A stretch of 64,000 nt of DNA, from the IMG/VR virus record IMGVR_UViG_3300021426_000071, positions 65,023 to 129,022 of that record; one strand, given 5' to 3'. The translations under genes were made by a program, and so were the position numbers. Shown here one piece after another: positions 14,486-63,719 of this stretch (its first letter is position 1; each line of letters begins with the position of its first letter). This DNA is from a virus. Taxonomy: Duplodnaviria; Caudoviricetes. The notes under the pieces were generated by a model that worked only from the letters and a program-made list of their open reading frames with translations, was not told the DNA's origin and did no database searches.

Positions 14486-14700
14486 TAATGGGTGGCTGCT
14501 ATATAATAAAATTAATAGATGAAGAAGAACCAATGTGTTATTTAGGATTTTCTGTTGATTATTTATTATTAGTCAGTCGTCGTCAAAGTCAGGTATTTAT
14601 AGTAGAGGAACTCGTAAACGATCGCGTAATTCATCGTTTGAGAGGTCGTCGTTTTATTCCCATTAGAATACAGGGAAATGATTTTTGGGAGCGGTCATGA
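14482..14700 (+). CDS. Small hypothetical protein
   Basis: GGAGG RBS; overlaps the upstream stop codon; AT-rich; followed by a terminator. Confidence 0.45.
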   Translation: MIMGGCYIIKLIDEEEPMCYLGFSVDYLLLVSRRQSQVFIVEELVNDRVIHRLRGRRFIPIRIQGNDFWERS

Positions 14701-14714
14701 CCGCTCTTTTTTTT
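14687..14714 (+). terminator. Intrinsic terminator
   Basis: GGGAGCGGTC-AT-GACCGCTCTT inverted repeat plus a long T-tract. Confidence 0.7.
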
Positions 14715-14732
14715 ATGTAAAAGAGGTGTGTT

Positions 14733-17700: not shown

Positions 17701-20700
17701 ATAAGCTTGCACAGAATGCAAAGAAAGCGGCAGACGAGAAGAAAAGGTTTACCAATAATGTCAAGGAGGCAGAACCAGCCGAGGAAAAGACAAAAAAGAA
17801 TACAGAAAGCAAAGGTAAAAAGAAGAAGGATTTTGAAAAAGAATATCTTTCTTCAATCGACAAGTTTAAAAAATTAGCTCAGGACGGTGCACTAGAACAA
17901 TTATTGCCGGATCGATACTCTTCCTTACGGCAACAATTAAATTCAATCGAACCGAATGCATATTCTATCGATAAGTTTAACGAATCTTTAAAAGAAACCG
18001 CCACTCTTCTCTCAGATGTTAAGAAGCGTCATGTAGAAATAGAGAAGGCGTCTGAGAAAGGATATATGAAGGCTATTAGTGAATACACTAATAGCGAACA
18101 AGATTTACTGAAGTATTTACCGGACTCGGCGGAGCAATTAAAGAAAGAGTTAAATTCGATTGAACCTAATACTGCATCAATTGATCAGTTTATGTCTCAC
18201 CTTGAAGAAGCCCGTAAAAAGATGGATGACATGAGAGATTCTTTCAATTTGTGGCGTTTTTCATTCGATGAGGCGAATATTCTCAGTAGAAAAGTTCAAA
18301 ATAATTCTCATCTAAATGAATTATTTGGGCAAAGAATGTCAGACATTGAGGATAAAACTCCTTATATAGACCCTTATGATACAGAAGGTGTCGAAAAGTA
18401 TCATGATGAAGTTAAAAGTTTAATAGCCGATGTAAATCAGGCCCAGCAGATGGTGGCAATGGATGCAGACAGCGGAATTTCAAGCATTGCCAGATTAGCT
18501 AAAGATAGAAATCAATATATTGATGCTCTGGTAAAAACAGCAAATGGTAAAGGAACTGGTGCATTAGAAGATGTAATTCAAAATTATAATTCAAAACTTG
18601 ATGCAATTAAACAAAAAATTGCAGACATTAAAGCAGAGTGGGGAGAAAACGATCCCAATGCGAATAGGCTTCAAAAGAATCTTAACTTATATCAGTCTGA
18701 TACCGCAGATAAAATCAGACAACGTCTTCTCGCGGACGCACAGGCGAAACAACAAAAAATAACAAATGCCCAAATGTCTCCTAACGATTTCGTGCCAGCA
18801 TTTACTGCCGAACTTAAATCTGCGCATGATTCGGTTGATTCTATAGTCAAGGAAATAAGTGGCGCGGATGTGTCAAAGTTTTTTGATGAAAAGGCTGTTG
18901 AAAAGTGGGTAGACTCATTGAAGGATGCCCAAAATACAATTGACAACATTAAAAAGCAGGAAAATGTATCGGCCACTGAAAATCAATTGCAAACGTTGAT
19001 GCGAAGAATCAACACAGATATATCCCATCGTGGACTGCGTGGAACGCTGGCAGATGAATACTCAGATTTGAAAACTCGCGTAGAAGCAGCAGCCGCGGCA
19101 ATCAGAGATGCCGATGATGCCGCTGAGGCTGTTAGCAAAATAGATATGAAGGGTTTCGTAACTGAATGGAGTACTCTAAATGCAAAAGCTAGAGAAGCTG
19201 GGCAATTATCAGATGGGTTTGCCAAGAAGTTTAGTGAAGCTATTAATAATCAGTCGGCACAGTTTTTGGCAACGTATTTTAGTTTTCAAGACATGGTGCG
19301 CTATGCAAAAGAAATTTCCCAGACAGTTGTACAGACTGATAGCGCACTTGTTGAGTTAAGAAAGGTATCAAACGAATCCAACGATAGAATTCAGGAAAGT
19401 TTTCAGAAGTCTGCCGAAACAGCTCAGGAAATGGGAAGTACTGTTACCGACGTTGTAAACAGTACAGCAGATTGGTCGAGGCTTGGCTATGACATTGGAG
19501 ACGCCGAAGAACTGGCTAGAGTTACCACTCTTTTCCAGAAGGTTGGCGACAATATGACGCAAGAGTCTGCAAGCCAGTCGCTTGTTTCGATGCTACAGGG
19601 ATTTCAAATGGACGCATCGCAAGCGGAGCGGATTGTTGACAGCGTGAATGCCGTCGCTAATAATTTCGCAATTGACACAGCAGGAATCGGCGATGCGTTA
19701 CAGAGATCGGCTGCGGCATTTAATGCGGCTGGTACAGATTTAAATAAATCTATTGCATTGGTTACAACAGCGAATGCAGTGGTACAAGATCCGGCATCTG
19801 TGGGTAAATGTTGCCCACTTCATAGGTAACTATGAAACACAAAAAGTAGCTATATCGGTTAAAGTCCAGCGGTGGATCAGACCGAGGTAAGACCTAGAAT
19901 ATGTATATGTTTGTATGTGATACGCCAATTAGGATGGCGTGTCTTTTTTTTATGAGGAAAAAATATGCCAAGAAAAGGAGATTTAAAAGGAGTATACGTT
20001 CCTTGTGAGAACTGCGGCAAGATTCTTTATAGAACGCCGTATAGGATGAATAAAAACACACATCAGTTTTGTAGCAATCAATGCCAAATGGAATACGAGC
20101 ATAAGCAAAGATTTGAGGATAGAAAATGTGAAGTATGTGGCAAGGTAATGCATCTATCGAAATTATCTACGCAGAGGTTCTGTTCCGAGTTGTGTCAACA
20201 TGAATGGCAGAAGACGCGTGTTGGAGACCTAAACCCAAAAACGAAACGTGTAGAGGTTCAATGTGATTGGTGCGGTAAAATGTTTACTAAGACGCCGTCT
20301 GTATATGCGTTAACAGATAGACATTTTTGCTCTAACGAGTGTAGGCGCAACTGGTACGCAAAGGTTTTGAGCCAACAAGACTCTTGGAAGGCGGCATCAA
20401 GAGATCGATGTCTAAATATGCTTGCGGCTGGTGAAATAAGCCATACAAATACAAAACCACAAATTATTGTCAACGATATATTGACAGACAAAAACATTAA
20501 GTTTGAAAACGAACACATATGTGGTTTTTACTCTCTCGACAATTATCTATTAGAATCTAATCTTGCTATTGAGGTAATGGGTGATTTTTGGCACGCATCA
20601 CCGCTAAAGTATAATATAGACAATCTATATCCTAATCAAAGAAAAGCAATTGGGAGAGATAAGGCGAAGAGGACGTATGCCAAGAAATATTACGATATGG

Positions 20701-41936: not shown

Positions 41937-41941
41937 TTTCA

Positions 41942-41977
41942 AGGCATCGCGGGGTTCAACTCCTCGCGATGCTTTTT
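41942..41977 (+). terminator. Intrinsic terminator
   Basis: AGGCATCGCGGGG-TTCAACT-CCTCGCGATGCTT followed by TTT. Confidence 0.7.
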
Positions 41978-42023
41978 ATATAAAGGAGAAAAGGATTATG
42001 AAAAAGAAAGCTGGTGATGACCT

Positions 42024-43754
42024 ATCGGATTAAGAATATGGTTGCCCCTTACAGGGGATCTTCATAATCAAGGGTTAGAAGATGTAACCATTACTAATAA
42101 TGGTGCTACTGTTGATAATAATGGAAAGATTGGAAAGTGTTATTCATTTGATGGAAATTCAAGTCAAATAAGATTTAATTCAGACTGGATTCCCGCCATG
42201 CAAGGACATGATTTTACTATTGCATTCTGGGCATACAACAATGATGATGGTGATCGATCTGTTATGTTCGCAACTACTCCTACGAGCGGTTGGGGAATAT
42301 CAATCGAGAAAACAACAGGGAATACATTAAGAGTATATTGGCAAGGTAATCCAGATATTATAATCAGTGACTTTACACTGCCCGTTGGTGAGTGGGTACA
42401 TATAGCTGAGACATATACAAATAACAGCTTGTATGTTTATAAGAACGGCGAGAAGGTATATGAAAGATTGGATACTGTACTCGCGTCCAACCTGACAAAT
42501 ACTTGGAGTTATGCTGCCATTGGGCGAGATGTGCGAACTGGTAGTACAGCATTTAAAGGCAAGCTGAATGATTTTAGATGGTATGACCACGCTCTCTCTC
42601 CTCGCGAGGTCAAAGAAATTGCCAAAGGTCTGGTTTGTCATTATACGTTGAGTGGCATTGGGGGAGAGAATCTTAGTAATTTTAGTTCATACGCTAATAA
42701 CTGGAGTATGGAGGAATTAACTGGAACAAATTATACAGATGATGTGTATGGCAATGTAATTAAATTGTCAACAAGTGCAGCTTCAAAAAGAATGTATCAT
42801 AGCGTCTCTAATGTGTGGACAAGCGGACAAAAATATGCCGTCTCATTTTTAGCAAAGGCAGAATCCTCTGGTGTAACGTGTGATATGTCACGAAGTCTTG
42901 CTAATGTTAGTGAAACTTTTAGTTTGTCAGAGGATTGGAAAAGATATACTGGAACGATTACATGTACTGAAACAGTATCGGGTGGCACTCTTAGTTTCAG
43001 AATTTATCAGGCAAATGCAGTAGTTTATATCACGCAAATAAAATTAGAATATGGCACTATTGCTACTCCATATATTCCAAATTCTACAGATCCCCTCTAC
43101 ACTAAAATGGGTCTGGATGATGGTATCGAATATGATGTGAGCGGATACTGTCATAATGGAATTAAGACTGGGGCAATCACATATGATATAGATACTCCGA
43201 GATATTGGACGTCTAGCAAGTTTGATACAGGCATGGATATATGTGGTGATAATCCATTATCGAGTCCGTGCACACAATTTACTGTGGCTGGATGGGTGAA
43301 TCTTACAACAGGGTATGCAACTAATCAGGGATTCCATATATTCGGATTTGATGGAGTCTATTGCAGAATTTGTATAAGTAAAGATAATGCGGCTGTTCGT
43401 GTTTTATTGAGAGATGGTACTACTAATTATACTGGTAGTTCTGCTATGGCGGCATCTGCATTGACTGCCGAAAAGTGGAATCATTATGCCATTACTTTTG
43501 ATAATGGAACTCTTAAAATTTATATCAATGGATTACTCGATAGCACAACAACGGCGTCAATTACATCTGTGACATTTCCTTCTACTTATATAAGAATTGG
43601 GCGATACAACATAGAACAACCAAAAGGAAAAGCCTCCGATATAAGGTTTTATGTAACTGCTCTCTCCGCAGAAGATATCCTCGCGCTTTACAACAATCCA
43701 GTATCGCTATCATCAAACGGTGCTTTGCTGACACAAAGTGAGGTGACGGAATGA
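42024..43754 (+). CDS. LamG/concanavalin A-like and carbohydrate-binding domain tail protein; probable ATC start
   Basis: Two LamG-like units (W-x-H-I/Y-A-x-T...G-K-x-x-D-x-R-x-Y-x-x-ALS) flank a CBM-like unit ending KLEYGTIATPY. The frame opens after TGATGA at CCT ATC GGA TTA AGA ATA TGG TTG CCC. Confidence 0.75.
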   Translation: MGLRIWLPLTGDLHNQGLEDVTITNNGATVDNNGKIGKCYSFDGNSSQIRFNSDWIPAMQGHDFTIAFWAYNNDDGDRSVMFATTPTSGWGISIEKTTGNTLRVYWQGNPDIIISDFTLPVGEWVHIAETYTNNSLYVYKNGEKVYERLDTVLASNLTNTWSYAAIGRDVRTGSTAFKGKLNDFRWYDHALSPREVKEIAKGLVCHYTLSGIGGENLSNFSSYANNWSMEELTGTNYTDDVYGNVIKLSTSAASKRMYHSVSNVWTSGQKYAVSFLAKAESSGVTCDMSRSLANVSETFSLSEDWKRYTGTITCTETVSGGTLSFRIYQANAVVYITQIKLEYGTIATPYIPNSTDPLYTKMGLDDGIEYDVSGYCHNGIKTGAITYDIDTPRYWTSSKFDTGMDICGDNPLSSPCTQFTVAGWVNLTTGYATNQGFHIFGFDGVYCRICISKDNAAVRVLLRDGTTNYTGSSAMAASALTAEKWNHYAITFDNGTLKIYINGLLDSTTTASITSVTFPSTYIRIGRYNIEQPKGKASDIRFYVTALSAEDILALYNNPVSLSSNGALLTQSEVTE

Positions 43755-44389
43755 TACACAAAACTGGAATTATTAATGCGAGTGGGGATGAGATTGGCGA
43801 GAATCTATTAATGAGAGCAACTACAAGCGGAAGTTATGGTTCAAGTCCTATTGAAACAACATTTACATTTACTGGCTGGGATACATATGCTCAGTATAAT
43901 TTAGCAAATGATGAGATTAATTGGAATGATCACGTTGGTGAATATATTACTTATAGATGTTGGATGTCTAATGATTTACAAACAACGGGTACAGGGACTG
44001 GTATCATGCTCCATTTTCGATATGCCGATTCAACATATCAACAATTTGGTGGAGGCAAAGGAGGCGCGGTAAGTTCATATCTTGCGGAGGGTGAGTCAGG
44101 ATGGATCTGGCTAACTGTAAAAATTCCAGATCCTACCGTAAGAACAAACCCAACATCTATAATACGTGTACAAGCTAGCATCAGACACAATTCCAATAAT
44201 GGTGTATCAACGGTTAGAGTTAAAAATGGCAAGGTTGAATTTGGAACTGTCGCTACCCCTTGGACAATGAATGAAAATGACTGGGGCTTTGTTGGCAACA
44301 ACCACGGATTTATAGAGAGATTTAACGGCGAACACCCGATGAGTGTTTACGAAGGACATTATGAGATGGATGAAATAATTGAATATTGA
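43751..44389 (+). CDS. Carbohydrate-binding-type tail accessory protein
   Basis: GENLL...KVEFGTVATPW boundaries typical of phage CBM-like modules; ATGA overlap. Confidence 0.6.
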   Translation: MIHKTGIINASGDEIGENLLMRATTSGSYGSSPIETTFTFTGWDTYAQYNLANDEINWNDHVGEYITYRCWMSNDLQTTGTGTGIMLHFRYADSTYQQFGGGKGGAVSSYLAEGESGWIWLTVKIPDPTVRTNPTSIIRVQASIRHNSNNGVSTVRVKNGKVEFGTVATPWTMNENDWGFVGNNHGFIERFNGEHPMSVYEGHYEMDEIIEY

Positions 44390-44400
44390 GGTAAATATAT

Positions 44401-45198
44401 ATGGGTAAAATTAGTAATCAACCAGATGCGGGAGATCTAGTTCTTACTGATATGGTTCCAATCGTTCATCTGAGCGGGACAGAACCAATCAATCAGAAGA
44501 CAACGATGGGAGCAATCAAGGACTATGTGATTGACGCGTTTGGATCAAGCGGAGCGATTCGATGCCCCTCCCTAAAAATTGGTATGCTCGGAGACAGTGT
44601 GACGATGGGCAGAATCGGCGGCGGGGATGGCGCGGTCACTCCGCTTGGCATTCCGTACTGGGTAAACTATGAACTTAGAGTGCCAGTGACCAATTACGGC
44701 GTTGGCGGCATAGGGTGGATGACGCATAAGATTCTGGAGCAGAACGCATACGAATATATGCAGACAATTGATCTTACAGAATTTGATGTGCTAACTCTGG
44801 ACTATGGACTTAACGATACAGATGTTCCGCTAGGGGACTATCTTGACACGACCGAAGAGACAATCTTCGGTTATGTTTTTAGATGTCTGAATTACATTTA
44901 TTCTGTGAACCCGACCGCAAAGGTGATTATGATTAACCCAACGGTTGGTCAGCGTCCTGATACGTTCCCCTACTATGATCCGACTATTCCACAATCAGAG
45001 GAAACATGGACTTTCAGCCAGTTCTTTGAGCAGATGAACCAGTTCTGCAATAAGTACGCGCTCCCGCTGATTGATTCGTGGAAGGCGTTTAATGCATGGA
45101 ATAGAGTAACATTTCTGCCAGATAAATTACATCCATCTGTTGATGGGTATAAAGTTCTGGGGACATATATTGCGGGACAGATCAGATCAATGATCTGA
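44401..45198 (+). CDS. SGNH/GDSL esterase with an N-terminal attachment module
   Basis: GDSVT (block I), NYGVGG (II), YGLND (III), DKLHP (V). Confidence 0.85.
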   Translation: MGKISNQPDAGDLVLTDMVPIVHLSGTEPINQKTTMGAIKDYVIDAFGSSGAIRCPSLKIGMLGDSVTMGRIGGGDGAVTPLGIPYWVNYELRVPVTNYGVGGIGWMTHKILEQNAYEYMQTIDLTEFDVLTLDYGLNDTDVPLGDYLDTTEETIFGYVFRCLNYIYSVNPTAKVIMINPTVGQRPDTFPYYDPTIPQSEETWTFSQFFEQMNQFCNKYALPLIDSWKAFNAWNRVTFLPDKLHPSVDGYKVLGTYIAGQIRSMI

Positions 45199-45257
45199 TT
45201 TTTTTATGGTCATATGAGAAACCAATAACAATAAAGAGATGAAAGGGATAAAATTTT

Positions 45258-46106
45258 ATGATTATCAAAGCAAGGATTAATGGAGAAAATGGACATATCT
45301 TCAAGCTTTGCAGTTGGGATTCAACGAACTTTGATTCTAATCCTCTGCTGAGAATTCAGTCTAGTGATCTGACTGAAGTCAAGAATGTATTTTCTCATGT
45401 AGAATCCATTGAAATTTATGTGAGTGAAAATCTCGTTGCGGCATATTCGCAGTATGATGCCTACTCCACTATCAGCTATGTGGGAGAGGTATTTGTTCAG
45501 CATGAAAACATCTTTGCGGAATGCATGGAGGTTGGGTTAAAGCGGACTAGCCTTGCGAGTGAAGTCGCGGATCTGAGAAATAAAGTTGAGCCTGTGATTG
45601 ACATTGATGCTATGACTGTTGACGAATATCGCGACTATCTTCTGAAACAGGTGGGCGCAGCTTGCAGACAGGAAATTTATGATGGCACTCAGGTCGAATT
45701 GCCGTCCACTGGGGCAATAGAAAAATATACATATAATGATGACGATCAGAAGAACTTGACGAATGCGATGGCGATCCTGATTATCGCGCCGGAGCTGCCC
45801 ATGATACCGTATCATCCGTCTGGCGGAATGTGTAGAATGATTCCTTCTCTTGATCTTCTGACGATCTACGGTACGCTTCAGGTCAGGCTGACGTATCTGA
45901 CAACCAGATGTAACTTTATGAATATCTGGATTAGATCGATTAAAACAAAAGAAGAGCTTCTGGAGATCAATTGGAATACCGATCTTCCGCAAGAGTATCA
46001 GACTCGCGTGGATGATATTTATTCGCAGTCACTGGCGATCATGAACCAGATTAAACAGCGGTTCCTGCCGCAAGAGGAAGAGACCAATGCTGCCCAAGAG
46101 AGTTAA
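45258..46106 (+). CDS. Tail fibre assembly-like protein (DUF4376-like C-terminus)
   Basis: C-x-x-x-I-x-x-G...Y-x-x-DDQ-x-NL...PYH-x-x-G-x-x-C pattern; located in the fibre module. Confidence 0.55.
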   Translation: MIIKARINGENGHIFKLCSWDSTNFDSNPLLRIQSSDLTEVKNVFSHVESIEIYVSENLVAAYSQYDAYSTISYVGEVFVQHENIFAECMEVGLKRTSLASEVADLRNKVEPVIDIDAMTVDEYRDYLLKQVGAACRQEIYDGTQVELPSTGAIEKYTYNDDDQKNLTNAMAILIIAPELPMIPYHPSGGMCRMIPSLDLLTIYGTLQVRLTYLTTRCNFMNIWIRSIKTKEELLEINWNTDLPQEYQTRVDDIYSQSLAIMNQIKQRFLPQEEETNAAQES

Positions 46107-46530
46107 GGCGGACGCCGCTATATTTGTCATTGGCGGGCTGCTCTACTGCGGAATTGAACTGGCCTACAGAGGAAGGACGGCATTCCCAATGTTTATTCTG
46201 GCGGGATGCTGTGCGCTGATTATGGCATGGCTCAATAACATTTTCAGCTATGACATGCCTTTTAAATGGCAAGTACTTTTGGCGGCATTAGCTTGTGTCT
46301 GCGGTGAATACATTACTGGAATTATTGCTAACAGAGATTTCAAGATTTGGGATTATAGAAATCTGCCCTTCACCTTTGCGGGAGGGCAGTTAAATTTATT
46401 CTTCTGCCTAGTCTGGGTAGCACTTTCCGCAATTGGAATACCCATTATGGACTATGTGGAATGGAAGTATATGGGTGATGAAACAAAACCCTATTACATC
46501 ATTGATGGGAAAAAGATTTATTTTTACTAA
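46087..46530 (+). CDS. Multi-pass membrane protein (putative ABC transporter type IV-like family common in phage tail modules)
   Basis: GG-x-x-Y-x-x-IE-x-x-x-RG, EY-x-x-G, WDY-x-x-LP-x-x-x-x-GQ; about four hydrophobic segments. Confidence 0.65.
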   Translation: MLPKRVKADAAIFVIGGLLYCGIELAYRGRTAFPMFILAGCCALIMAWLNNIFSYDMPFKWQVLLAALACVCGEYITGIIANRDFKIWDYRNLPFTFAGGQLNLFFCLVWVALSAIGIPIMDYVEWKYMGDETKPYYIIDGKKIYFY

Positions 46531-46548
46531 TAAGGAGATAAAAGGAAT

Positions 46549-47031
46549 ATGAGCAAGAAAATTACGAAGACTATTACAAACATGGTGGCACTTAATGAAA
46601 CATCTTGGTATGAGCAGCACAGAGAGGATTCCGCAGTGCTGTCCGCAAAGGCGCGGCTTGCGCTTAAGCGTAATATGAAAGAACTTGATGAACTGGCTAA
46701 GGATTTCTATGAGATGCGGGATGAACTGGATACCAAGATCCGTGAGAAATATTCGGACGATAAGTATTCTACAGAGACTGAGATCGAGGATGAGAACGGA
46801 AATAAGCAGCCCGGTCGTTCAGTTAAAGATGAATATCTGGATGAATATCGGAAGGAGATCCGCGAGATGCAGATTAAGCTTGATGAGGTTCTTAATGACA
46901 CTGTTGAGGTTGATCTGTATGTGATTAGTCTTGATGATGAGGTTGATAGAATTGATGAGAAGGGTCTTGAAATCTCAGATGCAACGATGGATATGATTAG
47001 TCTTTTTGAAGATACAGAGGACGGCGAATAA
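46549..47031 (+). CDS. Hypothetical acidic protein
   Basis: AAGGA RBS; coiled-coil; followed by a terminator. Confidence 0.6.
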   Translation: MSKKITKTITNMVALNETSWYEQHREDSAVLSAKARLALKRNMKELDELAKDFYEMRDELDTKIREKYSDDKYSTETEIEDENGNKQPGRSVKDEYLDEYRKEIREMQIKLDEVLNDTVEVDLYVISLDDEVDRIDEKGLEISDATMDMISLFEDTEDGE

Positions 47032-47048
47032 TGCCGTCCTTTTATTTT
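47018..47048 (+). terminator. Intrinsic terminator
   Basis: AGGACGGC-GAATAAT-GCCGTCCT followed by TTTATTTT. Confidence 0.65.
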
Positions 47049-47067
47049 ATGGAAGGGGTGATGACCT

Positions 47068-50000
47068 ACGGCAATATTAAAGAATTTGGTGGTCAATGGA
47101 TCAGCCAGATGCTTAAACACCCTATATGTTAATGACTTAAATGTAAGCGGTAGTTCGACTTTTGGAGCGTTGACAGCAACAGGTCTGACTGTCTCTGGAA
47201 ATGTGAATGTAACTGGTACAACTACTCTTGGTGTAACCAATGTGTCTGGAACAATGACACTTTCAAAAACAACGGATTTAAGTGGAACTGCGAATAATAG
47301 CCCAGCCCTTATTGTTGGCGGTACAGCTACTACTCCTCATATGGAGTTTGACGCTAATGAGATTCATGCGAAGAAAAATGGTGCTGAAGTTGAATCTATT
47401 TATATAAACAATAATGGCGGCAAGGTTTATTTAGGTAGCGGAACTACTCTTTATGCGGAAAGCGGTACGCTTAATGCAAGTAAAGTCGTAGCCGGAAGTG
47501 GTCGTATTAATAATCTTTTTGTTGAAGATGAGCTAAGAGCTACAAGATATAATATTTCTACTATTGCAGATCTTGGCGGACAGTTTATTGTTGCTCCTAC
47601 ACTTTATTTAGTTGCGTCTGGATCAGTTGGCGATCTTCAAATTGATGATCCTATCACAACAACTGTAGATGTAACAGCTATTGGTTCTGACTCAGAAGGA
47701 TACAATCTACAATTAGATATTACTTCTTCTGCTATTGGTAGTGCTGATACTGACACTACTTTTGCGGGGGCGTCATGGTCTAATGGTAGTACTGTTAAAG
47801 TTTCTGGAAAGATTGGTGGGGTTGTTCTTGGTGCTTGTAATGGTAAACTAACAAGCAATATGAGTAAAACCAATCAGACTTTACATCTTAAAATTAAGTA
47901 TACTGGACAGACAATTAATACTATTAATGCAGGAAGATATAGTACCACTGATGCTAACAATCCTCTACAAGAGTTGAATGTCATGTTAACCGCCGTAAAT
48001 GTTTCAAATAACTTAAATAAGGTCGGCATCTATATGACTTCTTATGATGCCAATAAGAGGTCGCATATCTCACTGTATGGCGGGAACGATGGTAAACCTA
48101 TAGTTAGAATTGGTAATCTACAAGGGTTAGATGCGATTAATGATGTCATTCCTACTGGTTGGGGAATTTATACCAATAATGGATTTTTTAGCGGCGTGAT
48201 TGTTTCTAATTCTGGTAAGATCGGGAATTTTAATTTAACAGACAAGCTTTATACTGGATCTCATTCAACATGGAATCATAATTCTAATGGAATGTATATC
48301 GCAGCTGATGGTATTGCGGGTGGAAATGGCGGAACTTGGTATCTCTGGAATGATGGTACTGGCAAAATTGGTAAATATACGTTTGCATCAAATGGAGCAT
48401 TAACTACTGGGTCTGGAAACACTCAGGCGGGTATGGGCGGTACTTATGCTTTCTGGGCGGGTAGTGCGACTCAGGGATCTGCTCCATTTAGAGTAGCATA
48501 TGATGGCAGCGCGGTATTTGCAAATGCTACACTTGGTGATCCTAATGCTTATCATGTGAGTATTGATAGTGATTCGGTTGATATTTGGAATGGGATAGAA
48601 ACAAATCCTGATAATAGCGTTGCATCTTTTGGCCAGACAACAAGGGTTGGATATACAGGCGATGAGGGAGGCTATATTCAAATATCAGATACTGGGTTTA
48701 AGGTATATGGTCTTTATAAACAGGGGGGTCTCATAATGGGATACCCGACAGATGTTCTAGCAGAATTAAAAGATAGTCGTTTTACTGTTGGAGTAACAAA
48801 CAAAACTGGAAAGACCGCATTATATGAAAATAGAATTTATTCTTATGATAGAAACGGTGTATTGTTTTTTTGTATTGGATCATGTGAAGATATAAATGGA
48901 CTTGTTTGTCAATCAGATAGATTTACAGGCGATGGAAATACTACTGTTTTTCCTTTAACGTATAAACCTTGGAGATGGGAAGGGGAAAATTCTGTCAGTG
49001 TGCTAATAAATGGCGTATTACAAACTTTTGACACTGACTATTATCCTTCTGCGACTACTGATGTCAATAATACAGAATTAAATTTTGTAAATCCGCCTCC
49101 TGATGGGGCATCAATTTTCGTCTCTTATTATGTTGGTAATGCCACTGTTCCCGGATATACTTTTGGTCAAAGAAAAACAGGAGGTTATGGAGGTCTTTAT
49201 AGTACTTGTTTTGGCTATCAAAATGAATGCGCTGGAAAATATTCATTTTGCGTGGGAAGTAATGTTGGTGCCTTTGGCGATTATTCAATAGCCATTGGCG
49301 ACTCAACGATAGCTAGTGGAAAAAGCTCTTTTTCATGTGGGTATCATACACTTGCAAGTAATACTTATTCTTATGCTCAAGGATGCGAAACATCAGCGGC
49401 AGGAATAGCATCACACGCCGAGGGTCAAGAAACATTAGCTAGTGGTAATTTTGCTCATGCTGAAGGTTATAAAACGACAGCTTCGGATGAATATGCTCAT
49501 GCCGAAGGGATATCGACAGTGGCTTCAGGGCCTTATGGCTCTCATGCCGAGGGGCATAGTACCGTTGCAAGTTCATGGTATTCTCATGCTGAAGGTTATG
49601 AATCTAAGGCTAAAGGACATGGCTCACACGCAGAAGGGCATTCTTCAACAGCAAGCGATGAAGGGTCACATGCAGAAGGGTATAATACATTTGCGGAAGG
49701 AACCGCATCACATGCCGAAGGAATGGGTACTCATGCAACAGGGAATGGTTCACATGCAGAGGGATATTATTCTATGGCTATTGGAGAAGGGTCACATGCT
49801 CAAAATTCCAATACTTATGCAACGGCAGATTATTCCACTACAATTGGGAAATTTAATGAGGTGACGTCTACAACAGTCAATGAAGAAACAACTTATGATG
49901 CGGGAAACTATGCTTTAATCATTGGTAACGGAACTTCTGAATTATCGAGATCAAATGCTCTCACTATAGATTGGAATGGATTTATTCGACGTCGATCATT

Positions 50001-50616
50001 AGTTATGTCGAGTGATTCAAATGTAACAGCACCATCTAGTAATACTACTCTTGCGTCTAATTCATATTATGATATTAATGACCATCAAATTGGATATGAT
50101 CAAATTGTATTAAATACAAGTAATAATTTATATCGTTCTTTTGGTGTGACAAGGCAAGTTAATAATGCAACTATTACACATGCTATGTATATGGGCATTG
50201 AAACAAGTGGTGATAGATATGTTAGTTTCTCAGACCCTCAAGCATGGCGAAACGGTCTTGGATTAAAACGTGGTAGTTCTATTACAAGAACGTATACTTC
50301 CAATAATTATGTGAACCAAACAAACTTTAATCGATTAGCTGCATATCAAATAGGCAACCTTGTATATATAACTGGTAACCTTTCATTAAGTGCGGCAATG
50401 CCTAAGAGTTCCGACTGGGTTACAATTGGAAGCTTCCCTATAACGCCAAATGTTACATGGTATGAAAGTGTTGCGGGATGCGGTGCTGGTTCTAATATTC
50501 CCGCATTAGGAGTACAAATTACTACTGGCGGTGTAATTCAAATATATAACTATAGTAATACTTCTGCTCCATTAGGTGCTTGGTACAGATTTACAGCTAT
50601 CATACCTATTGAGTGA
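47068..50616 (+). CDS. Tail fibre/adhesin with YadA-head-like SHAEG repeats; probable ACG start
   Basis: About 9 tandem 14-aa (S/A)HAEG repeats (~49400-49800) ending in IIGNGT...RSNALTIDWNG. The frame opens after TGATGA at CCT ACG GCA ATA TTA AAG AAT TTG GTG. Confidence 0.75.
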   Translation, partial: TAILKNLVVNGSARCLNTLYVNDLNVSGSSTFGALTATGLTVSGNVNVTGTTTLGVTNVSGTMTLSKTTDLSGTANNSPALIVGGTATTPHMEFDANEIHAKKNGAEVESIYINNNGGKVYLGSGTTLYAESGTLNASKVVAGSGRINNLFVEDELRATRYNISTIADLGGQFIVAPTLYLVASGSVGDLQIDDPITTTVDVTAIGSDSEGYNLQLDITSSAIGSADTDTTFAGASWSNGSTVKVSGKIGGVVLGACNGKLTSNMSKTNQTLHLKIKYTGQTINTINAGRYSTTDANNPLQELNVMLTAVNVSNNLNKVGIYMTSYDANKRSHISLYGGNDGKPIVRIGNLQGLDAINDVIPTGWGIYTNNGFFSGVIVSNSGKIGNFNLTDKLYTGSHSTWNHNSNGMYIAADGIAGGNGGTWYLWNDGTGKIGKYTFASNGALTTGSGNTQAGMGGTYAFWAGSATQGSAPFRVAYDGSAVFANATLGDPNAYHVSIDSDSVDIWNGIETNPDNSVASFGQTTRVGYTGDEGGYIQISDTGFKVYGLYKQGGLIMGYPTDVLAELKDSRFTVGVTNKTGKTALYENRIYSYDRNGVLFFCIGSCEDINGLVCQSDRFTGDGNTTVFPLTYKPWRWEGENSVSVLINGVLQTFDTDYYPSATTDVNNTELNFVNPPPDGASIFVSYYVGNATVPGYTFGQRKTGGYGGLYSTCFGYQNECAGKYSFCVGSNVGAFGDYSIAIGDSTIASGKSSFSCGYHTLASNTYSYAQGCETSAAGIASHAEGQETLASGNFAHAEGYKTTASDEYAHAEGISTVASGPYGSHAEGHSTVASSWYSHAEGYESKAKGHGSHAEGHSSTASDEGSHAEGYNTFAEGTASHAEGMGTHATGNGSHAEGYYSMAIGEGSHAQNSNTYATADYSTTIGKFNEVTSTTVNEETTYDAGNYALIIGNGTSELSRSNALTIDWNGFIRRRSLVMSSDSNVTAPSSNTTLASNSYYDINDHQIGYDQIVLNTSNNLYRSFGVTRQVNNATITHAMYMGIETSGDRYVSFSDPQAWRNGLGLKRGSSITRTYTSNNYVNQTNFNRLAAYQIGNLVYITGNLSLSAAMPKSSDWVTIGSFPITPNVTWYESVAGCGAGSNIPALGVQITTGGVIQIYNYSNTSAPLGAWYRFTAIIPIE

Positions 50617-55649: not shown

Positions 55650-57470
55650 ATGGCAGTTAATAAAGTTGTATATGATGGCCGGACGCTGATTGATATATCG
55701 GACACGACCGCGACCGCTGATAAGATTTTATCAGGATATACGGCGTATGGAGCAGATGGAAACAAAGTAACTGGAACCGCCGAGTCTGGTGGTGTTTCTC
55801 CGCAGCCAACTGAGGAAAAGGCTGTCTTCTTTTATGATTACGAAGGGACTCTGCTGTATTCTTACACAAAGGCGGAATTCTTGGCACTGAGTGCGATGCC
55901 AGCTAATCCGTCACATACGGGTCTTGTGGCACAGGGGTGGAACTGGAGTCTTGCAAATGCAAAGACTTATATTCAGTCATATGATAAGCTGATTATTGGA
56001 CAGATGTATACTACATCCTCTGGAGATACAGAGATTGATGTATCGTTATATGAAGGACGAATTGATCCGTATTTTGGGCTTGCGGTAAAAGGAACTGTAA
56101 CAATTTACTGGGGAGACGGTTCATCCAGCAGCCTTACAGGAACGTCTCTGACAACGATCAAAAAAACTAAACATACTTATAGCGCCGTTGGTAATTACAC
56201 GATTAGCATTCACGCTGAAGGAACCAATGAATATAGTATTTATTCAAATAAATCATCTGGCCCTAGTGCATTATTATCAAGTGTATCCAGTACATCCAAT
56301 TCATCAGTAGCGAATGACAGTATAGAAGCTTATATCAAATGCATCAAGGCTGTTAGAATTGGAAATAACATTTCCACTATAGGAACGCGGGCATTTCAGG
56401 AGTGTACATGTCTCGAATATGTTAGTATGCCGGATTCCATCACAACCATAATGAGTTACGCATACATAGGTACAAATTTAAAATTCTTAACCGTACCCAA
56501 TAGTGTAACCTCTCTGCCCGCATATTGTTTTGAAGATTCGGCGAATTTAAAACGTGTATCACTCCCATGCGCTTTGACTTCAGTGGGTGGTTTTTCATTT
56601 CGCGATTGTGTGTCATTGGAAGAAATAGCCATACCAGACAATGTATCCAGCCTTGGATCTTATACATTTAATGGATGTGAATCATTAACGTCGATTAAGA
56701 TTCCTACGGCGGTTACATCTTTGGATACATATGTTTTTTACGGTTGTTCATCACTTATAGATGTCACACTCCCTGATACAATCACAAGTATAGGAGCGAA
56801 CGCCTTTTCTAAATGTGGTTTTTCTGAGCTTACTTTGCCGGAACATTTGACCAGTATTGGTAATTATATTTTCAGCAGCTGTTTATCATTGATGTCTATC
56901 ATTATTCCGGCTTCGGTTGTTTCAATTGGAGATCGTATATTTTCTGGGTGTACTAAACTGAAAAGCGTTACATTTGAAGGGGATGTCGAATCTGTTGGAG
57001 AAGGAATATTTACAGGTTGTTCATTCTTAGAATCCGTCACGCTTCCAGATACAATTACATCATTTGGTAAGGGATTATTTACAGACTGTATATCATTAAG
57101 ATCGGCTAATATACCAAGCGGAGCAGACAATGTCCCAACTGAAATGTTTTACGGATGTTCATGCTTAGATAGTATTACAATTCCAAATACTGTTACAACA
57201 ATTAATCAAAGTGCTTTTAGGAGTTGTGCATCCATTAAATCTATAGATATTCCAGAAAATGTAACTACTATTGCTACATATGCATTTTATAACTGTTATA
57301 GTTTATCCATTATCAGATTTCATGGAACAACCCCGCCAACGATTGGTGGATCTGCTTTTGCTGGATTAAAATTACCTTGTACAATATATGTTCCTGCCGG
57401 AACATTATCTGCGTATACAGGAACGACGAATATGCCTAAGAGCACAACTTATACATATGTGGAATATTAA
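55650..57470 (+). CDS. BspA-type leucine-rich repeat (TpLRR) protein with a virion-attachment N-terminus
   Basis: About 13 repeats of L-x-x-I-x-IP-x-x-V-x-x-IG-x-x-AF-x-x-C; N-terminus paralogous to 55070. Confidence 0.85.
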   Translation: MAVNKVVYDGRTLIDISDTTATADKILSGYTAYGADGNKVTGTAESGGVSPQPTEEKAVFFYDYEGTLLYSYTKAEFLALSAMPANPSHTGLVAQGWNWSLANAKTYIQSYDKLIIGQMYTTSSGDTEIDVSLYEGRIDPYFGLAVKGTVTIYWGDGSSSSLTGTSLTTIKKTKHTYSAVGNYTISIHAEGTNEYSIYSNKSSGPSALLSSVSSTSNSSVANDSIEAYIKCIKAVRIGNNISTIGTRAFQECTCLEYVSMPDSITTIMSYAYIGTNLKFLTVPNSVTSLPAYCFEDSANLKRVSLPCALTSVGGFSFRDCVSLEEIAIPDNVSSLGSYTFNGCESLTSIKIPTAVTSLDTYVFYGCSSLIDVTLPDTITSIGANAFSKCGFSELTLPEHLTSIGNYIFSSCLSLMSIIIPASVVSIGDRIFSGCTKLKSVTFEGDVESVGEGIFTGCSFLESVTLPDTITSFGKGLFTDCISLRSANIPSGADNVPTEMFYGCSCLDSITIPNTVTTINQSAFRSCASIKSIDIPENVTTIATYAFYNCYSLSIIRFHGTTPPTIGGSAFAGLKLPCTIYVPAGTLSAYTGTTNMPKSTTYTYVEY

Positions 57471-57473
57471 AAT

Positions 57474-57504
57474 AGGAGTCACCTTAAATGGTGACTCCTT
57501 TTTT
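57474..57504. terminator. Terminator between convergent late operon and integrase
   Basis: AGGAGTCACC-TTAAAT-GGTGACTCCT followed by TTTTT. Confidence 0.75.
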
Positions 57505-57508
57505 ACTT

Positions 57509-58780
57509 TTAGATCCCATTCATTATTTTAAAGGCATCTTCTGTCTGATCGGCAATGATGTGATAGTACACTCTTCTCGTAACATCCGTAGACGAGTGTC
57601 CGGCCATGCGTGAAATAACATCAATCGGGACGCCGTGCCGCAAGTAATAACTAATACCAGTGTGTCGCAGATAATGCATGGAGAATCCTTTTCTCGCGGG
57701 AGGAATAGGCTGATCTTTATACTCTTTCTTGGGATCTTTTTTCAAATTTGTCGCATACAAAATCCCATTCAGCGCCCGCCATGCCTGTGCCTCAGAGAGC
57801 GGCTTGCCGTTATCCGTGGCAAAAATCAATTCATTCTCAGATTCTGGGCGCATCCTCTTCTTATGTTCTAAAATTGCTTCTTTCGCATCGTCGGTAATCA
57901 TGACGATCCGTACCCCGTTTGCCGTCTTTGGGGTTGTCGTGACCACCTGTGTCTTTGCGTCTTCCTCCTCGCTCCGATTAATGACTCTGGATATGGACTT
58001 TGTCACCTGTAGGCGGTTGTGGTCTAAATCTAAATCCCTCCACCTGAGCGTCCTAGCCTCGCCAGATCGCAAGAAAGTCATCATTGTGAAATACAGTGCC
58101 AACCCATACTTACTTCGCCCCTGAGAGCCTGTTGCGGCTTCGTTAAACACCCAGTCCCTGAAGGTTTTAATCTCATCATCTGACAACACCATATCCTTGA
58201 GATCGTTCGACTCAAATAGATTCCTCTCCTCTACTAATTCTCCAATATCCGCCCCTTTGGTCGGCTTGGCAATCCCATTCATCGGATTTCCCGAGAGGTC
58301 TTTGGCATAAAGGAAATGAAAGAACTGATGAAGCACATCGTATGTCTTTGATATGACAGACTGGGAGTACTTCTTATCATATCGCAGATAATCCAAATGT
58401 GACCGAATATCGTCTGCGTCTACGTCGGCTGCTGGCATGATGCCGAGCCTCGTATCTTCGATCTGATTTTTAATTGTCCGCTCAATTCGATCATAAGAAG
58501 TAGCCTTAATCTTTCCAAGCTTTTCTTCCTTCAGCCACTTCTTCATCGCGTCCTGAAGCAGATCCTGTGTAATGGGTATCGTCTCAGAGAGGAATTCTTT
58601 GTCTAGCTCTTTCTCTCGGACTTTCATAAAGTTTATACACTCGTCGATGGTTTTGGCAGTAACTCCGATTCTGATCTTTGTAAATCCGTCTGGATACGTG
58701 TGTGTTTTTTCGTAACGAAACGAGTCACCTCTTTGTTGAAACGACCCCATTCCTCTTGGCATTTTTGGTAAATTTTTCAT
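57509..58780 (-). CDS. int: Phage integrase (tyrosine recombinase)
   Basis: LRSGE (R), PKT (K), HYLRHT, AGH, VYY; N-terminal arm-binding RGMGSF region; adjacent attP and xis. Confidence 0.92.
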   Translation of the reverse strand: MKNLPKMPRGMGSFQQRGDSFRYEKTHTYPDGFTKIRIGVTAKTIDECINFMKVREKELDKEFLSETIPITQDLLQDAMKKWLKEEKLGKIKATSYDRIERTIKNQIEDTRLGIMPAADVDADDIRSHLDYLRYDKKYSQSVISKTYDVLHQFFHFLYAKDLSGNPMNGIAKPTKGADIGELVEERNLFESNDLKDMVLSDDEIKTFRDWVFNEAATGSQGRSKYGLALYFTMMTFLRSGEARTLRWRDLDLDHNRLQVTKSISRVINRSEEEDAKTQVVTTTPKTANGVRIVMITDDAKEAILEHKKRMRPESENELIFATDNGKPLSEAQAWRALNGILYATNLKKDPKKEYKDQPIPPARKGFSMHYLRHTGISYYLRHGVPIDVISRMAGHSSTDVTRRVYYHIIADQTEDAFKIMNGI

Positions 58781-62548: not shown

Positions 62549-62606
62549 AATCCGAGGTCGGATTCGAACCGACATTGAGATGTTTTACCAGTTAAACTAC
62601 TCGGAC
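62549..62606 (-). ncRNA. tRNA-like RNA lacking the anticodon arm (58 nt)
   Basis: GTCCGAG-TA-GTTT AACTGGTA AAAC-ATCTCAAT-GTCGG TTCGAAT CCGAC-CTCGGAT-T. Confidence 0.75.
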
Positions 62607-62609
62607 TCT

Positions 62610-62661
62610 GACGGGCATAGATAGGGTAAATTGCAGAAAGGGAGGTAACGTTTCGCCCGCC
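62610..62661 (-). ncRNA. Hairpin sRNA candidate with an anti-SD loop
   Basis: Stem GGCGGGCG/TGCCCGTC; the 36-nt loop contains ACCTCCCTTTCT. Confidence 0.5.
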
Positions 62662-62682
62662 TCAAATAAATGAAAGACTTAA

Positions 62683-62756
62683 CCTGAGTAGTGCGATTCG
62701 AACGCACGACCTCCTGATCCCAAATCAGGCGCTCTACCAAACTGAGCCATACTCAG
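62683..62756 (-). tRNA. tRNA-Pro(TGG)
   Basis: Full cloverleaf: CTGAGTA/TACTCAG, GCTC/GAGC, CCTGA-TTTGGGA-TCAGG, GTGCG-TTCGAAT-CGCAC; no encoded CCA. Confidence 0.9.
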
Positions 62757-62758
62757 AT

Positions 62759-62822
62759 AGGGACGAGGGGACTTGAATTCGGCTTATAAGGCCGCTGCGC
62801 TAACCTATTGTGCCACATCCCA
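62759..62822 (-). pseudogene. tRNA-Ile(TAT)-like sequence missing the variable loop and 5' T-stem
   Basis: Acceptor GGGATG/CGTCCC, D-arm and CGGC-CTTATAA-GCCG are present, then the sequence jumps to AATTCAAGTCCCCT. Confidence 0.6.
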
Positions 62823-62894
62823 TTGTACGGCGAGGATTCGAACCTCGGACTCCCTCTTTCGCGAGGGCGTTTATCTCCGCTAAACTACCGTACT
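62823..62894 (-). ncRNA. tRNA-like RNA with a non-decoding 6-nt anticodon loop (GCGAAA)
   Basis: All four stems are intact; loop CCCTC-GCGAAA-GAGGG has no U33; A1.A72 mismatch. Confidence 0.7.
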
Positions 62895-62896
62895 AC

Positions 62897-62992
62897 TTGC
62901 CACTATACTCTTCCGCCTGTAATAGGTTGATCAAACCTACCCCATCCTACACTCTTGCTAAGCCGCTCCTCAGCAGTACCATTTAGTGACAA
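62897..62992 (-). ncRNA. Unclassified structured RNA
   Basis: Closing stem TTGTCACTA/TAGTGGCAA; inner hairpins TGCTGAG/CTTAGCA and GTAGGTT/AACCTAT. Confidence 0.5.
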
Positions 62993-62993
62993 A

Positions 62994-63102
62994 AGTCGGA
63001 GACTACTTTCCGCCGCTTCCGCGTCCGGCTTCTTCGGATTACGGTGTCGCATCCGACGAGGATATTTCCTCCCAACGGTTAGGCTTTCACTTATCTCCGA
63101 CT
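62994..63102 (-). ncRNA. Unclassified multibranch structured RNA
   Basis: Closing stem AGTCGGAGA/TCTCCGACT; inner helices GAGGA/TCCTC, GTCG/CGAC, TCCG/CGGA, CCGTT/AGCGG. Confidence 0.55.
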
Positions 63103-63104
63103 AA

Positions 63105-63177
63105 TTGCGGGAGCAGGATTCGAACCTGCGACTTCCAGCTTATGGGGCTGGCTTTCTGACCTCTGAATTATCCCGCT
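63105..63177 (-). tRNA. Atypical tRNA-Met(CAT) with an initiator-like body
   Basis: AGCGGGA/TCCCGCA-A acceptor with a 1:72 mismatch; T-arm GCAGG-TTCGAAT-CCTGC; anticodon arm CCAGC-CCCATAA-GCTGG has C33 and no 3 G-C pairs. Confidence 0.7.
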
Positions 63178-63190
63178 ATGTACTGGCGTA

Positions 63191-63262
63191 GCCCCAGTAG
63201 CAGATTCGAACTGCATCGCCGGACTACAATTCCGGTGCTCTAACCTATTGAGCTAACCGGGG
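63191..63262 (-). tRNA. Atypical tRNA-Thr(TGT)-like RNA with an extended flanking helix
   Basis: Cloverleaf with loop ATTGTAG (A32, G38) and a 3-nt variable loop; the flanks pair (63183-63189 with 63263-63269). Confidence 0.5.
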
Positions 63263-63271
63263 ACGCCAGAA

Positions 63272-63387
63272 CGGGAGCAGAAGGATTCGAACCTTCGTTT
63301 TCTGATTGATGGATATCAGACTGTTGCCAATTGACATACTCTAACAAGCACATCACGCTTGTACCCTTTGTCTACACTTACACTCCC
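63272..63387 (-). ncRNA. tRNA-like RNA with an expanded D region and aberrant anticodon loop
   Basis: Acceptor GGGAGTG/TGCTCCC; T-arm GAAGG-TTCGAAT-CCTTC; TCTGAT/ATCAGA stem with an 8-nt loop; extra hairpin ACAAGCG/TGCTTGT. Confidence 0.5.
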
Positions 63388-63391
63388 ATAT

Positions 63392-63452
63392 GACTGGCGG
63401 GAATCTTGGCGCCTCATCGATTCCACTTTAAGCGCTCATTAGCGCACCAGTC
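63392..63452 (-). ncRNA. Small three-way-junction RNA
   Basis: GACTGGT/GCCAGTC closes GCGCT-AATG-AGCGC and GGAATC/GATTCC. Confidence 0.45.
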
Positions 63453-63504
63453 TATGCATGTTACTCATCCGCAGAACAACCACCACTCGCGTTCTGCCAT
63501 GCGC

Positions 63505-63605
63505 TTATGTGGGCAAGGACTTGCACCTTACATGGCTTGCTACCCATATTAGTTCGTTCACAGCCTCACTTCTCGTATTAGCGTCTACTGTTCCGCCACC
63601 ACATA
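63505..63605 (-). ncRNA. Leu/Tyr-type tRNA-like RNA with a replaced anticodon arm and TGCAAGT T-loop
   Basis: TATGTGG/CCACATA acceptor; GCG-GAACAGTAGA-CGC D-arm; GTAAGG-TGCAAGT-CCTTGC T-arm; ~48-nt non-anticodon insert. Confidence 0.6.
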
Positions 63606-63658
63606 ACGTAGTCTTTCCCACTGTCAGACAAATTCCTCCATTCTTGCACTGAATGGAA

Positions 63659-63719
63659 TTGGGACGATTGGATTTGAACCAATGACACAATTTCCTCTAG
63701 CCAACTGAGTTACGTCCCG
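63659..63719 (-). ncRNA. Second tRNA-like RNA lacking the anticodon arm (61 nt)
   Basis: CGGGACG-TA-ACTC AGTTGGCTA GAGG-AAATTGTGTC-ATTGG TTCAAAT CCAAT-CGTCCCA-A. Confidence 0.75.

Follow-up and report, generated by a model that had tools for sequence, protein, structure and literature searches.

Initiation at codons one base away from AUG and placed behind a Shine-Dalgarno (SD) sequence is a known phenomenon in bacteria, exemplified by the AUU start of E. coli infC, which encodes initiation factor IF3, and by other near-cognate starts of translation table 11 (AUA, AUC, AUU and CUG); such starts are expected to be read by the initiator fMet-tRNA and to come under the check exerted by IF3 (PMC2268962, PMC5499595; 10.1101/063800). 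In E. coli, the best near-cognate initiators are AUA, AUC, AUU and CUG, at 1–2% of AUG, ACG belongs to a group at 0.1–1%, and an N-terminal Met was shown by mass spectrometry for both AUC and ACG starts (10.1101/063800). A second described system is translational coupling at overlapping stops and starts (UGAUG, AUGA), as between genes V and VII of phage M13, and re-initiation requires fMet-tRNA and is sensitive to IF3 (PMC2268962). Here, an 11-nucleotide motif, GGTGATGACCT, was investigated that occurs at the 5′ ends of a LamG tail protein gene and a tail-fibre gene in a stretch of 64,000 nucleotides (hereafter the window). The window makes up the right half of the 129-kb IMG/VR virus record IMGVR_UViG_3300021426_000071, which derives from a large uncultured gut phage. 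Comparative evidence points, with a probability of about 0.7, to initiation of both genes at near-cognate codons, AUC 42024 and ACG 47068, read by the host initiator fMet-tRNA. Like infC, these genes have a one-base variant of AUG behind an SD. In contrast to infC, near-cognate starts here involve more than one gene of a genome and, for one gene, as many as a fifth of its relatives; they include ACG, a codon absent from the table-11 starts; an AUG lies at position −7 relative to the start codon in nearly half of the sites; and an autoregulatory logic is not evident. The new elements are how often this family of phages uses such starts, the occurrence of ACG among them, and the rule of an AUG at −7.

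The window has a GC content of 41% and a clear SD of the GGAGGTGAT type before nearly every gene. Exact copies of the motif were found on the + strand at 42013–42023 (site 1) and 47057–47067 (site 2), and neither the remainder of the window nor the 129-kb record as a whole contains a third. On its own, an 11-mer found twice in 64 kb is unremarkable (at least two matches in 18 of 100 shuffles, one mismatch allowed). Its register is non-random, each copy ending one base short of the codon that aligns with the first residue (Met1) of homologous proteins. Read in the frame of the genes, both copies give TGA TGA CCT, followed by ATC GGA (42024) or ACG GCA (47068), as an earlier note on this DNA had described; since TGA TGA closes the gene frame at most three codons upstream, no in-frame canonical start is available upstream at either site. 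Recoding of TGA as W was considered and discarded, as it opens neither gene to an upstream start. The placement of the copies downstream of terminators, also reported earlier, was confirmed by strong T-run hairpins: hairpin 41941–41975 folded at −23.4 kcal/mol and lies about 35 nt from copy 1, and hairpin 47016–47042, with its T-run, folded at −17.5 kcal/mol and lies about 15 nt from copy 2. A GGU-GAUG-ACC mini-hairpin that had been proposed within the motif amounts to a trivial 3 bp, and folding gave it no support. No near-identical phage record was present in INPHARED, and a scan of IMG/VR for GGTGATGACCT-N6-TTA returned only chance matches within coding regions, mostly of the GDDL type.

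The beginning of both proteins was located by comparison with homologs. Those of the LamG gene number more than 1000, with N-termini MSLQVWLPL, MGLQVWLPL, MGLQVWLPLTKDLHNQGL and similar, and their Met1 aligns with ATC 42024; homologs of the fibre protein begin MAILKNLLVNGSARFLN, and their Met1 aligns with ACG 47068. The starts selected by gene callers strip conserved residues from both products, six from the LamG protein (TTG 42042) and six to seven from the fibre protein (TTG 47086 or GTG 47089), and no canonical start yields the conserved N-terminus at either gene. Three close relatives, represented by four assemblies from different samples (L004/L005, L006 and L007), have kept the motif at both sites. 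Tabulation of the codon after the motif, a check that the earlier note had proposed, gave ATC, ATT and ATC at site 1 of L004, L006 and L007, respectively, and ACG at site 2 of all three, each aligned with Met1 of homologs. The position of TTG 42042 is occupied by CTA, CTT and CTG in the three relatives. In L006, many bases are changed between the motif and the first canonical start, 21 codons downstream, and the residues SLRLWLPLLGD are retained; neither L006 nor L007 has a canonical start for at least 21 codons, yet the residues are conserved. Such change of bases with conservation of residues upstream of the TTG indicates that this stretch is coding and that the TTG is not the start, and excludes sequencing error. 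Judged from these alignments, both genes must begin at or beside the non-AUG codon, and the proposal that these codons set the natural N-termini was thereby supported. Farther away, ATC stands at the codon equivalent to ACG in the remote fibre homolog L290, and LamG relatives beyond the clade of the window all start with ATG, TTG or GTG. Two apparent exceptions among LamG relatives were rejected: a group of 13 loci with an apparent AGA start truly starts at a TTG one codon later, and the N-terminal extension of P0007 is a caller over-extension, the real start being a TTG behind AGGAGG.

The strength of the ribosome-binding sites was then compared. Pairing with the anti-SD, calculated with a generic 16S tail from which that of the host may differ, was −15.6 kcal/mol for ATC 42024 and −17.5 kcal/mol for ACG 47068, and −3.3 and −1.7 kcal/mol for TTG 42042 and TTG 47086, respectively, in agreement with the claim that these TTG codons lack a ribosome-binding site. 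The 28 ATG genes of the window averaged −9.5 kcal/mol (s.d. 3.6), which places both non-AUG sites at the top of the range. GGTGAT, which had been predicted to pair with the AUCACC of 16S rRNA, does so strongly at both sites as an extended SD; it is the 3′ part of the family consensus SD, and it stands at a working distance of 5 nt from both non-AUG codons. In copy 2 the SD, GGGGTGAT, makes eight anti-SD pairs, one of them G-U. A comparison of 20 distinct validated near-cognate sites with 603 canonical starts from six whole genomes of the family showed GTGAT at −10 in 8 of the former versus 9 of the latter (p = 5e-9), and U at −1, present in both motif copies, in 15 versus 243 (p = 0.002). The enrichment of U(−1) fits what is known of its pairing, as a fourth base pair, with A37 of the initiator tRNA (PMC10018350). 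The 11-mer thus reads as a ribosome-binding site adapted to a weak start codon and not as a separate element. The suggestion that it is an element dedicated to adsorption genes failed, because a helicase gene (CTG) and a gene of 861 amino acids (ATC) also have near-cognate starts, the latter wholly without the 11-mer, and many related phages have such starts with other spacers.

These two genes were the further cases obtained when the whole record was scanned for a strong SD in front of a long open reading frame (ORF) without a canonical start. In the DnaB-like helicase gene, AGGAGGTGATGATGA is followed by CTG, and no canonical codon appears before the one 24 codons in; residue 5 of the product aligns with residue 6–7 of its homologs. 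In the 861-aa gene, located outside the window, GGAGGGAGTGAAGTGAT is followed by ATC 55781, and the homologs begin MGEYGLKI or MSEYGLKI. Homolog starts fall within 0–2 residues of both codons. The Met1-aligned codons of this genome (ATC 42024, ACG 47068, and CTG and ATC elsewhere) are each one base from AUG, as is every non-canonical start codon seen, and almost all of those seen are among the four best of E. coli. The 861-aa gene has 78 relatives in IMG/VR, in which the codon aligned with Met1 was ATG in 44, ATA in 10, TTG in 9, GTG in 4, ATT in 4, ATC in 2 and CTG in 1; the remaining 4 have a canonical start no more than two codons upstream, and all non-canonical codons of this set are among the best near-cognates of E. 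coli (10.1101/063800). Near-cognate starts are real in 15 of the 78, after dropping two ATA loci (L186 and L189) that have an in-frame ATG two codons upstream and were counted as canonical. The start is also ATC in L339 and L340 (76 and 70% identity). On the tree of this gene the trait needs at least three changes, and most parsimoniously seven. Relatives of the helicase have ATT, CTG and ATA starts; several other DnaB picks with ATC or ATA were counted as canonical owing to an in-frame ATG one to three codons upstream. An ORF-based hunt in five whole relatives yielded about 10 further candidates, none of which was validated by homology within the six genomes, and these were not counted. Relatedness of the 861-aa protein to the annotated ‘RNA-dependent RNA polymerase’ of Enterocloster phage PMBT24, and to a protein from Clostridium phage c-st, suggests a polymerase-like function; it also suggests a Clostridia host, and the hosts of the family are probably Clostridia.

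Combined, these comparisons give good support to the non-canonical initiation put forward in the earlier note, and none to a dedicated receptor-gene element read by a phage factor. Such starts recur across this genome and across the family. According to the favoured explanation, GGUGAU would pair with AUCACC in the 3′-terminal part of 16S rRNA, the spacer GACCU (5 nt) would place the P site on the following triplet, and the U at −1 could contribute a fourth pair, formed with A37 of the initiator tRNA. The very strong SD would offset the weak codon, giving a low and steady output suited to low-copy tail proteins. At site 1, ribosomes ending an 11-codon upstream ORF (uORF) 5 nt past the AUC may add re-initiation. 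Some observations weigh against near-cognate initiation in this plain form. Across the family set, SD energies of near-cognate and ATG starts were not significantly different (p = 0.17); ACG is a poor initiator in E. coli, and no other ACG start was validated in the family; the fibre gene may instead start at AUA 47074, which follows the ACG by two codons and has a poor SD spacing of 11 nt; and the enrichment of AUG at −7 is left unexplained.

Several other explanations were weighed. One reading holds that the annotated TTG or GTG starts are correct, or that ATC and ACG result from sequencing error or from the decay of ATG in a dying gene. It would agree with the choice of the gene callers, but is scarcely credible: the relatives have other codons at the position of TTG 42042, the annotated TTGs have no SD, four independent assemblies agree on ATC/ATT and ACG, and both genes are long intact ORFs with conserved domains. 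It is also very improbable that the identity of 11–12 bases reflects copying or recombination between the 5′ ends of exchangeable receptor-binding cassettes instead of a translational need. Apart from what the family rule prescribes (GGTGATG, N4, start), ACCT and the A of the start codon are indeed common to both sites, for which the chance is about 1/256–1/1000, and the two genes are otherwise unrelated; however, the flanks are dissimilar, with 4 of 8 bases matching upstream and scattered matches with indels downstream, and recombination between the copies, which are direct repeats, would delete six genes, a deletion not seen in the relatives. Termination-reinitiation as the main route, with the SD holding ribosomes at the weak codon, is quite unlikely. 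Stop-near-start geometry was examined at site 1, at site 2 of the window and its relatives, and at the helicase and 861-aa genes. The site-1 uORF has a strong ribosome-binding site (SD pairing of −9.1 kcal/mol), ends in another frame at TAA 42031–42033 (+8 to +10), and is kept in L004, L006 and L007, in L004 with an in-frame insertion of 12 nt; the helicase CTG directly follows the TGA TGA TGA of the upstream gene, and the upstream stop ends 2 nt before ATC 55781. An upstream stop within about 10 nt of the restart, a likeness to M13-type coupling, is thus present at site 1 and at the helicase and 861-aa genes, but not at site 2 of the window, whose uORF runs in a different frame, stops 63 nt downstream and has an ATG without an SD (−0.6 kcal/mol); in the relatives, site 2 has a 10-codon uORF stopping at +11. 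Unlike in M13, the restart codon is non-canonical, and conservation of the site-1 uORF says little, because the four relatives are nearly identical upstream of this site. Coupling may nonetheless contribute to expression, to judge from this gene arrangement. A −1 frameshift from the site-1 uORF was rejected, there being no slippery site at 42021–42033, where L006 differs. At site 2, the window has GGAAGGGG at 47049–47056 and the relatives GGAAAGGGG (5307–5315 in L004; also in L006 and L007), a one-base difference that puts the upstream ATG 47049 into another frame with respect to the motif.

The remaining alternatives start from the AUG at −7. The out-of-frame ATG ACC TAY pointed out earlier is present at both sites, with the ATG at 42017–42019 and 47061–47063, and proved to be part of a strong enrichment at non-AUG starts: an ATG exactly at −7, always in the −1 frame, occurs at 9 of the 20 near-cognate sites (both sites described here, the helicase CTG, L339, L340, L144, L173, L175 and L347) versus 10 of 603 canonical starts (p = 3.6e-10). 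The base following GTGAT at −10 is G in 12 of 17 non-ATG starts versus 0 of 7 ATG starts (p = 0.005), and on the gene-4 tree all seven inferred changes of the −7 ATG fall on rows with a non-ATG start; when the association of the −7 ATG with start type was tested on phylogenetic pairs from this tree, the test was underpowered, with only three supported pairs. In prfB (RF2), an SD lying very near the P-site codon promotes +1 shifts. Initiation could likewise occur on the SD-adjacent AUG at −7, followed by a +1 event into the main frame, either after one codon has been decoded, giving M-T-I-G... and M-T-T-A..., or by the fMet-tRNA sliding or hopping 7 nt onto the near-cognate codon. The enrichments, the changes on the tree and the close SD placement speak for it, and the main frame is +1 of the upstream AUG, as in prfB; this alternative is doubtful for several reasons. 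Unlike in prfB, neither a conserved slippery P-site codon that re-pairs in the +1 frame nor an in-frame stop or hungry codon in the A site was found, the zero-frame A-site codon being UAU or UAC at eight of the nine sites. The codon after the −7 AUG varies (ACC, AUG, CAA, CAG, AAG, UGU, and a UGA stop in L144), and the AUG itself is displaced in some variants, lying at −9 and in frame in L480 and at −4 in L479; this variation makes a conventional +1 frameshift unlikely. Moreover, a −7 AUG from which to shift is missing from 11 of the 20 near-cognate sites, ATC 55781 of this genome among them, the A and U of the AUG are predicted to be taken up by the SD duplex, and a frameshift would free the Met1-aligned codon from being a near-cognate of AUG, yet it always is one. 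Bypassing of the T4 gene 60 type finds no closer match: the landing codon is a near match only, a stop follows the AUG only in L144, folding revealed no conserved hairpin, and a nascent-peptide signal is impossible, since there is no nascent peptide at initiation. It is possible that the −7 AUG serves for docking of the initiator tRNA, or as a mini-ORF feeding re-initiation. The docking idea can be extended, as an unlikely proposal, to a two-step ‘start-codon hand-off’ that moves fMet-tRNA 7 nt downstream onto the near-cognate codon: a 30S subunit carrying fMet-tRNA may lock on the true AUG at −7, pass the IF3 check and find this AUG too near the SD core for use; growth of the SD helix from GGAGG to GGAGGUGAU may draw the A and U of the AUG into the duplex; and transfer of the tRNA to the near-cognate codon may be aided by U(−1):A37. 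If true, this would provide efficient starts of phage genes at AUH, CUG or ACG; the −7 AUG, if functional, would point to an undescribed step in bacterial start-site selection.

A phage-encoded initiator tRNA with a matching private start codon was considered as well. Searches of the record for tRNAs gave Gln-UUG, Pro-UGG, Met-CAU, Thr-UGU and a further one whose anticodon loop has 6 nt, and none has an anticodon matching AUC, ACG or CUG (GAU, CGU or CAG). The tRNA(CAU) at 63177–63105 has an initiator-like acceptor stem (A1.A72 mismatch, G2:C71, C3:G70 and A73) and C33, and is without the three G:C pairs of the anticodon stem. The unit at 62894–62823 has a 1:72 mismatch as in tRNA(CAU) and the 6-nt loop, and the unit at 62822–62758 has anticodon UAU. 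Running ARAGORN at a very low threshold gave only noise. Two relatives that use near-cognate starts, G003 and G004, have no tRNA-Met. No factor that might read the motif was found, so that this part of the earlier note was left without support.

The comparative evidence makes a case for natural near-cognate starts in phage genes, including ACG, which is outside the standard bacterial start table. A literature search, of incomplete coverage, retrieved no paper that describes near-cognate starts throughout a phage family, or an AUG placed at −7 from a start. Gene callers limited to ATG, GTG and TTG cut N-termini or miss starts across this widespread family of 90–190-kb gut phages. The sites supply a testable rule, in which an extended SD at a fixed spacing of 5 nt and a U at −1 are often joined by an AUG at −7 that is out of frame. 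The coordinates of the main features are collected in Table 1.

Table 1. Features at and around the two non-AUG starts (window coordinates unless indicated).
Feature	Position	Strand	Details
Intrinsic terminator after 2684-aa gene	41941..41981	+	14-bp stem, 7-nt loop, T-run
Short uORF, site 1	41983..42033	+	AAGGAG, 9 nt, ATG 41998; 11 codons (MKKKAGDDLSD)
Motif copy 1	42013..42023	+	Extended SD GGTGAT (42013–42018) and spacer GACCT
LamG/Laminin_G_3 tail protein gene	42024..43754	+	576 codons from ATC 42024, proposed true start
Intrinsic terminator after 160-aa gene	47016..47048	+	Terminator scan; fold
Motif copy 2	47057..47067	+	SD GGGGTGAT and spacer GACCT
Tail-fibre gene	47068..50616	+	1182 codons from ACG 47068, proposed true start
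tRNA and tRNA-like array	62549–63719	-	
861-aa conserved gene	55781–58366 of G000 genome, outside window		Start ATC 55781; no Pfam family

Some further observations concern the neighbourhood of these genes. Between the two receptor-type genes, a GDSL lipase/esterase gene (44401–45198) is present in the window and L004 and absent from L006 and L007; on this gene content, the tail module is one that varies by whole genes. At three intergenic sites of the window the terminator T-tract runs directly into an ATG (TTTTTTTTATG or TTTTATTTTATG; 14700–14732, 19935–19964 and 47040–47051), and such junctions may be part of a terminator/promoter signal and not the start of an ORF. Within the first 20 codons of LamG relatives, an in-frame TAG was found at a conserved Q in L212, L225 and L265, and an in-frame TGA at a conserved W (V*LPL) in L234, L241, L256, L264, L278 and L282. 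These stops at conserved residues point to stop-codon recoding in the relatives (TAG as Q or TGA as W); the genome of the window itself reads with the standard code.

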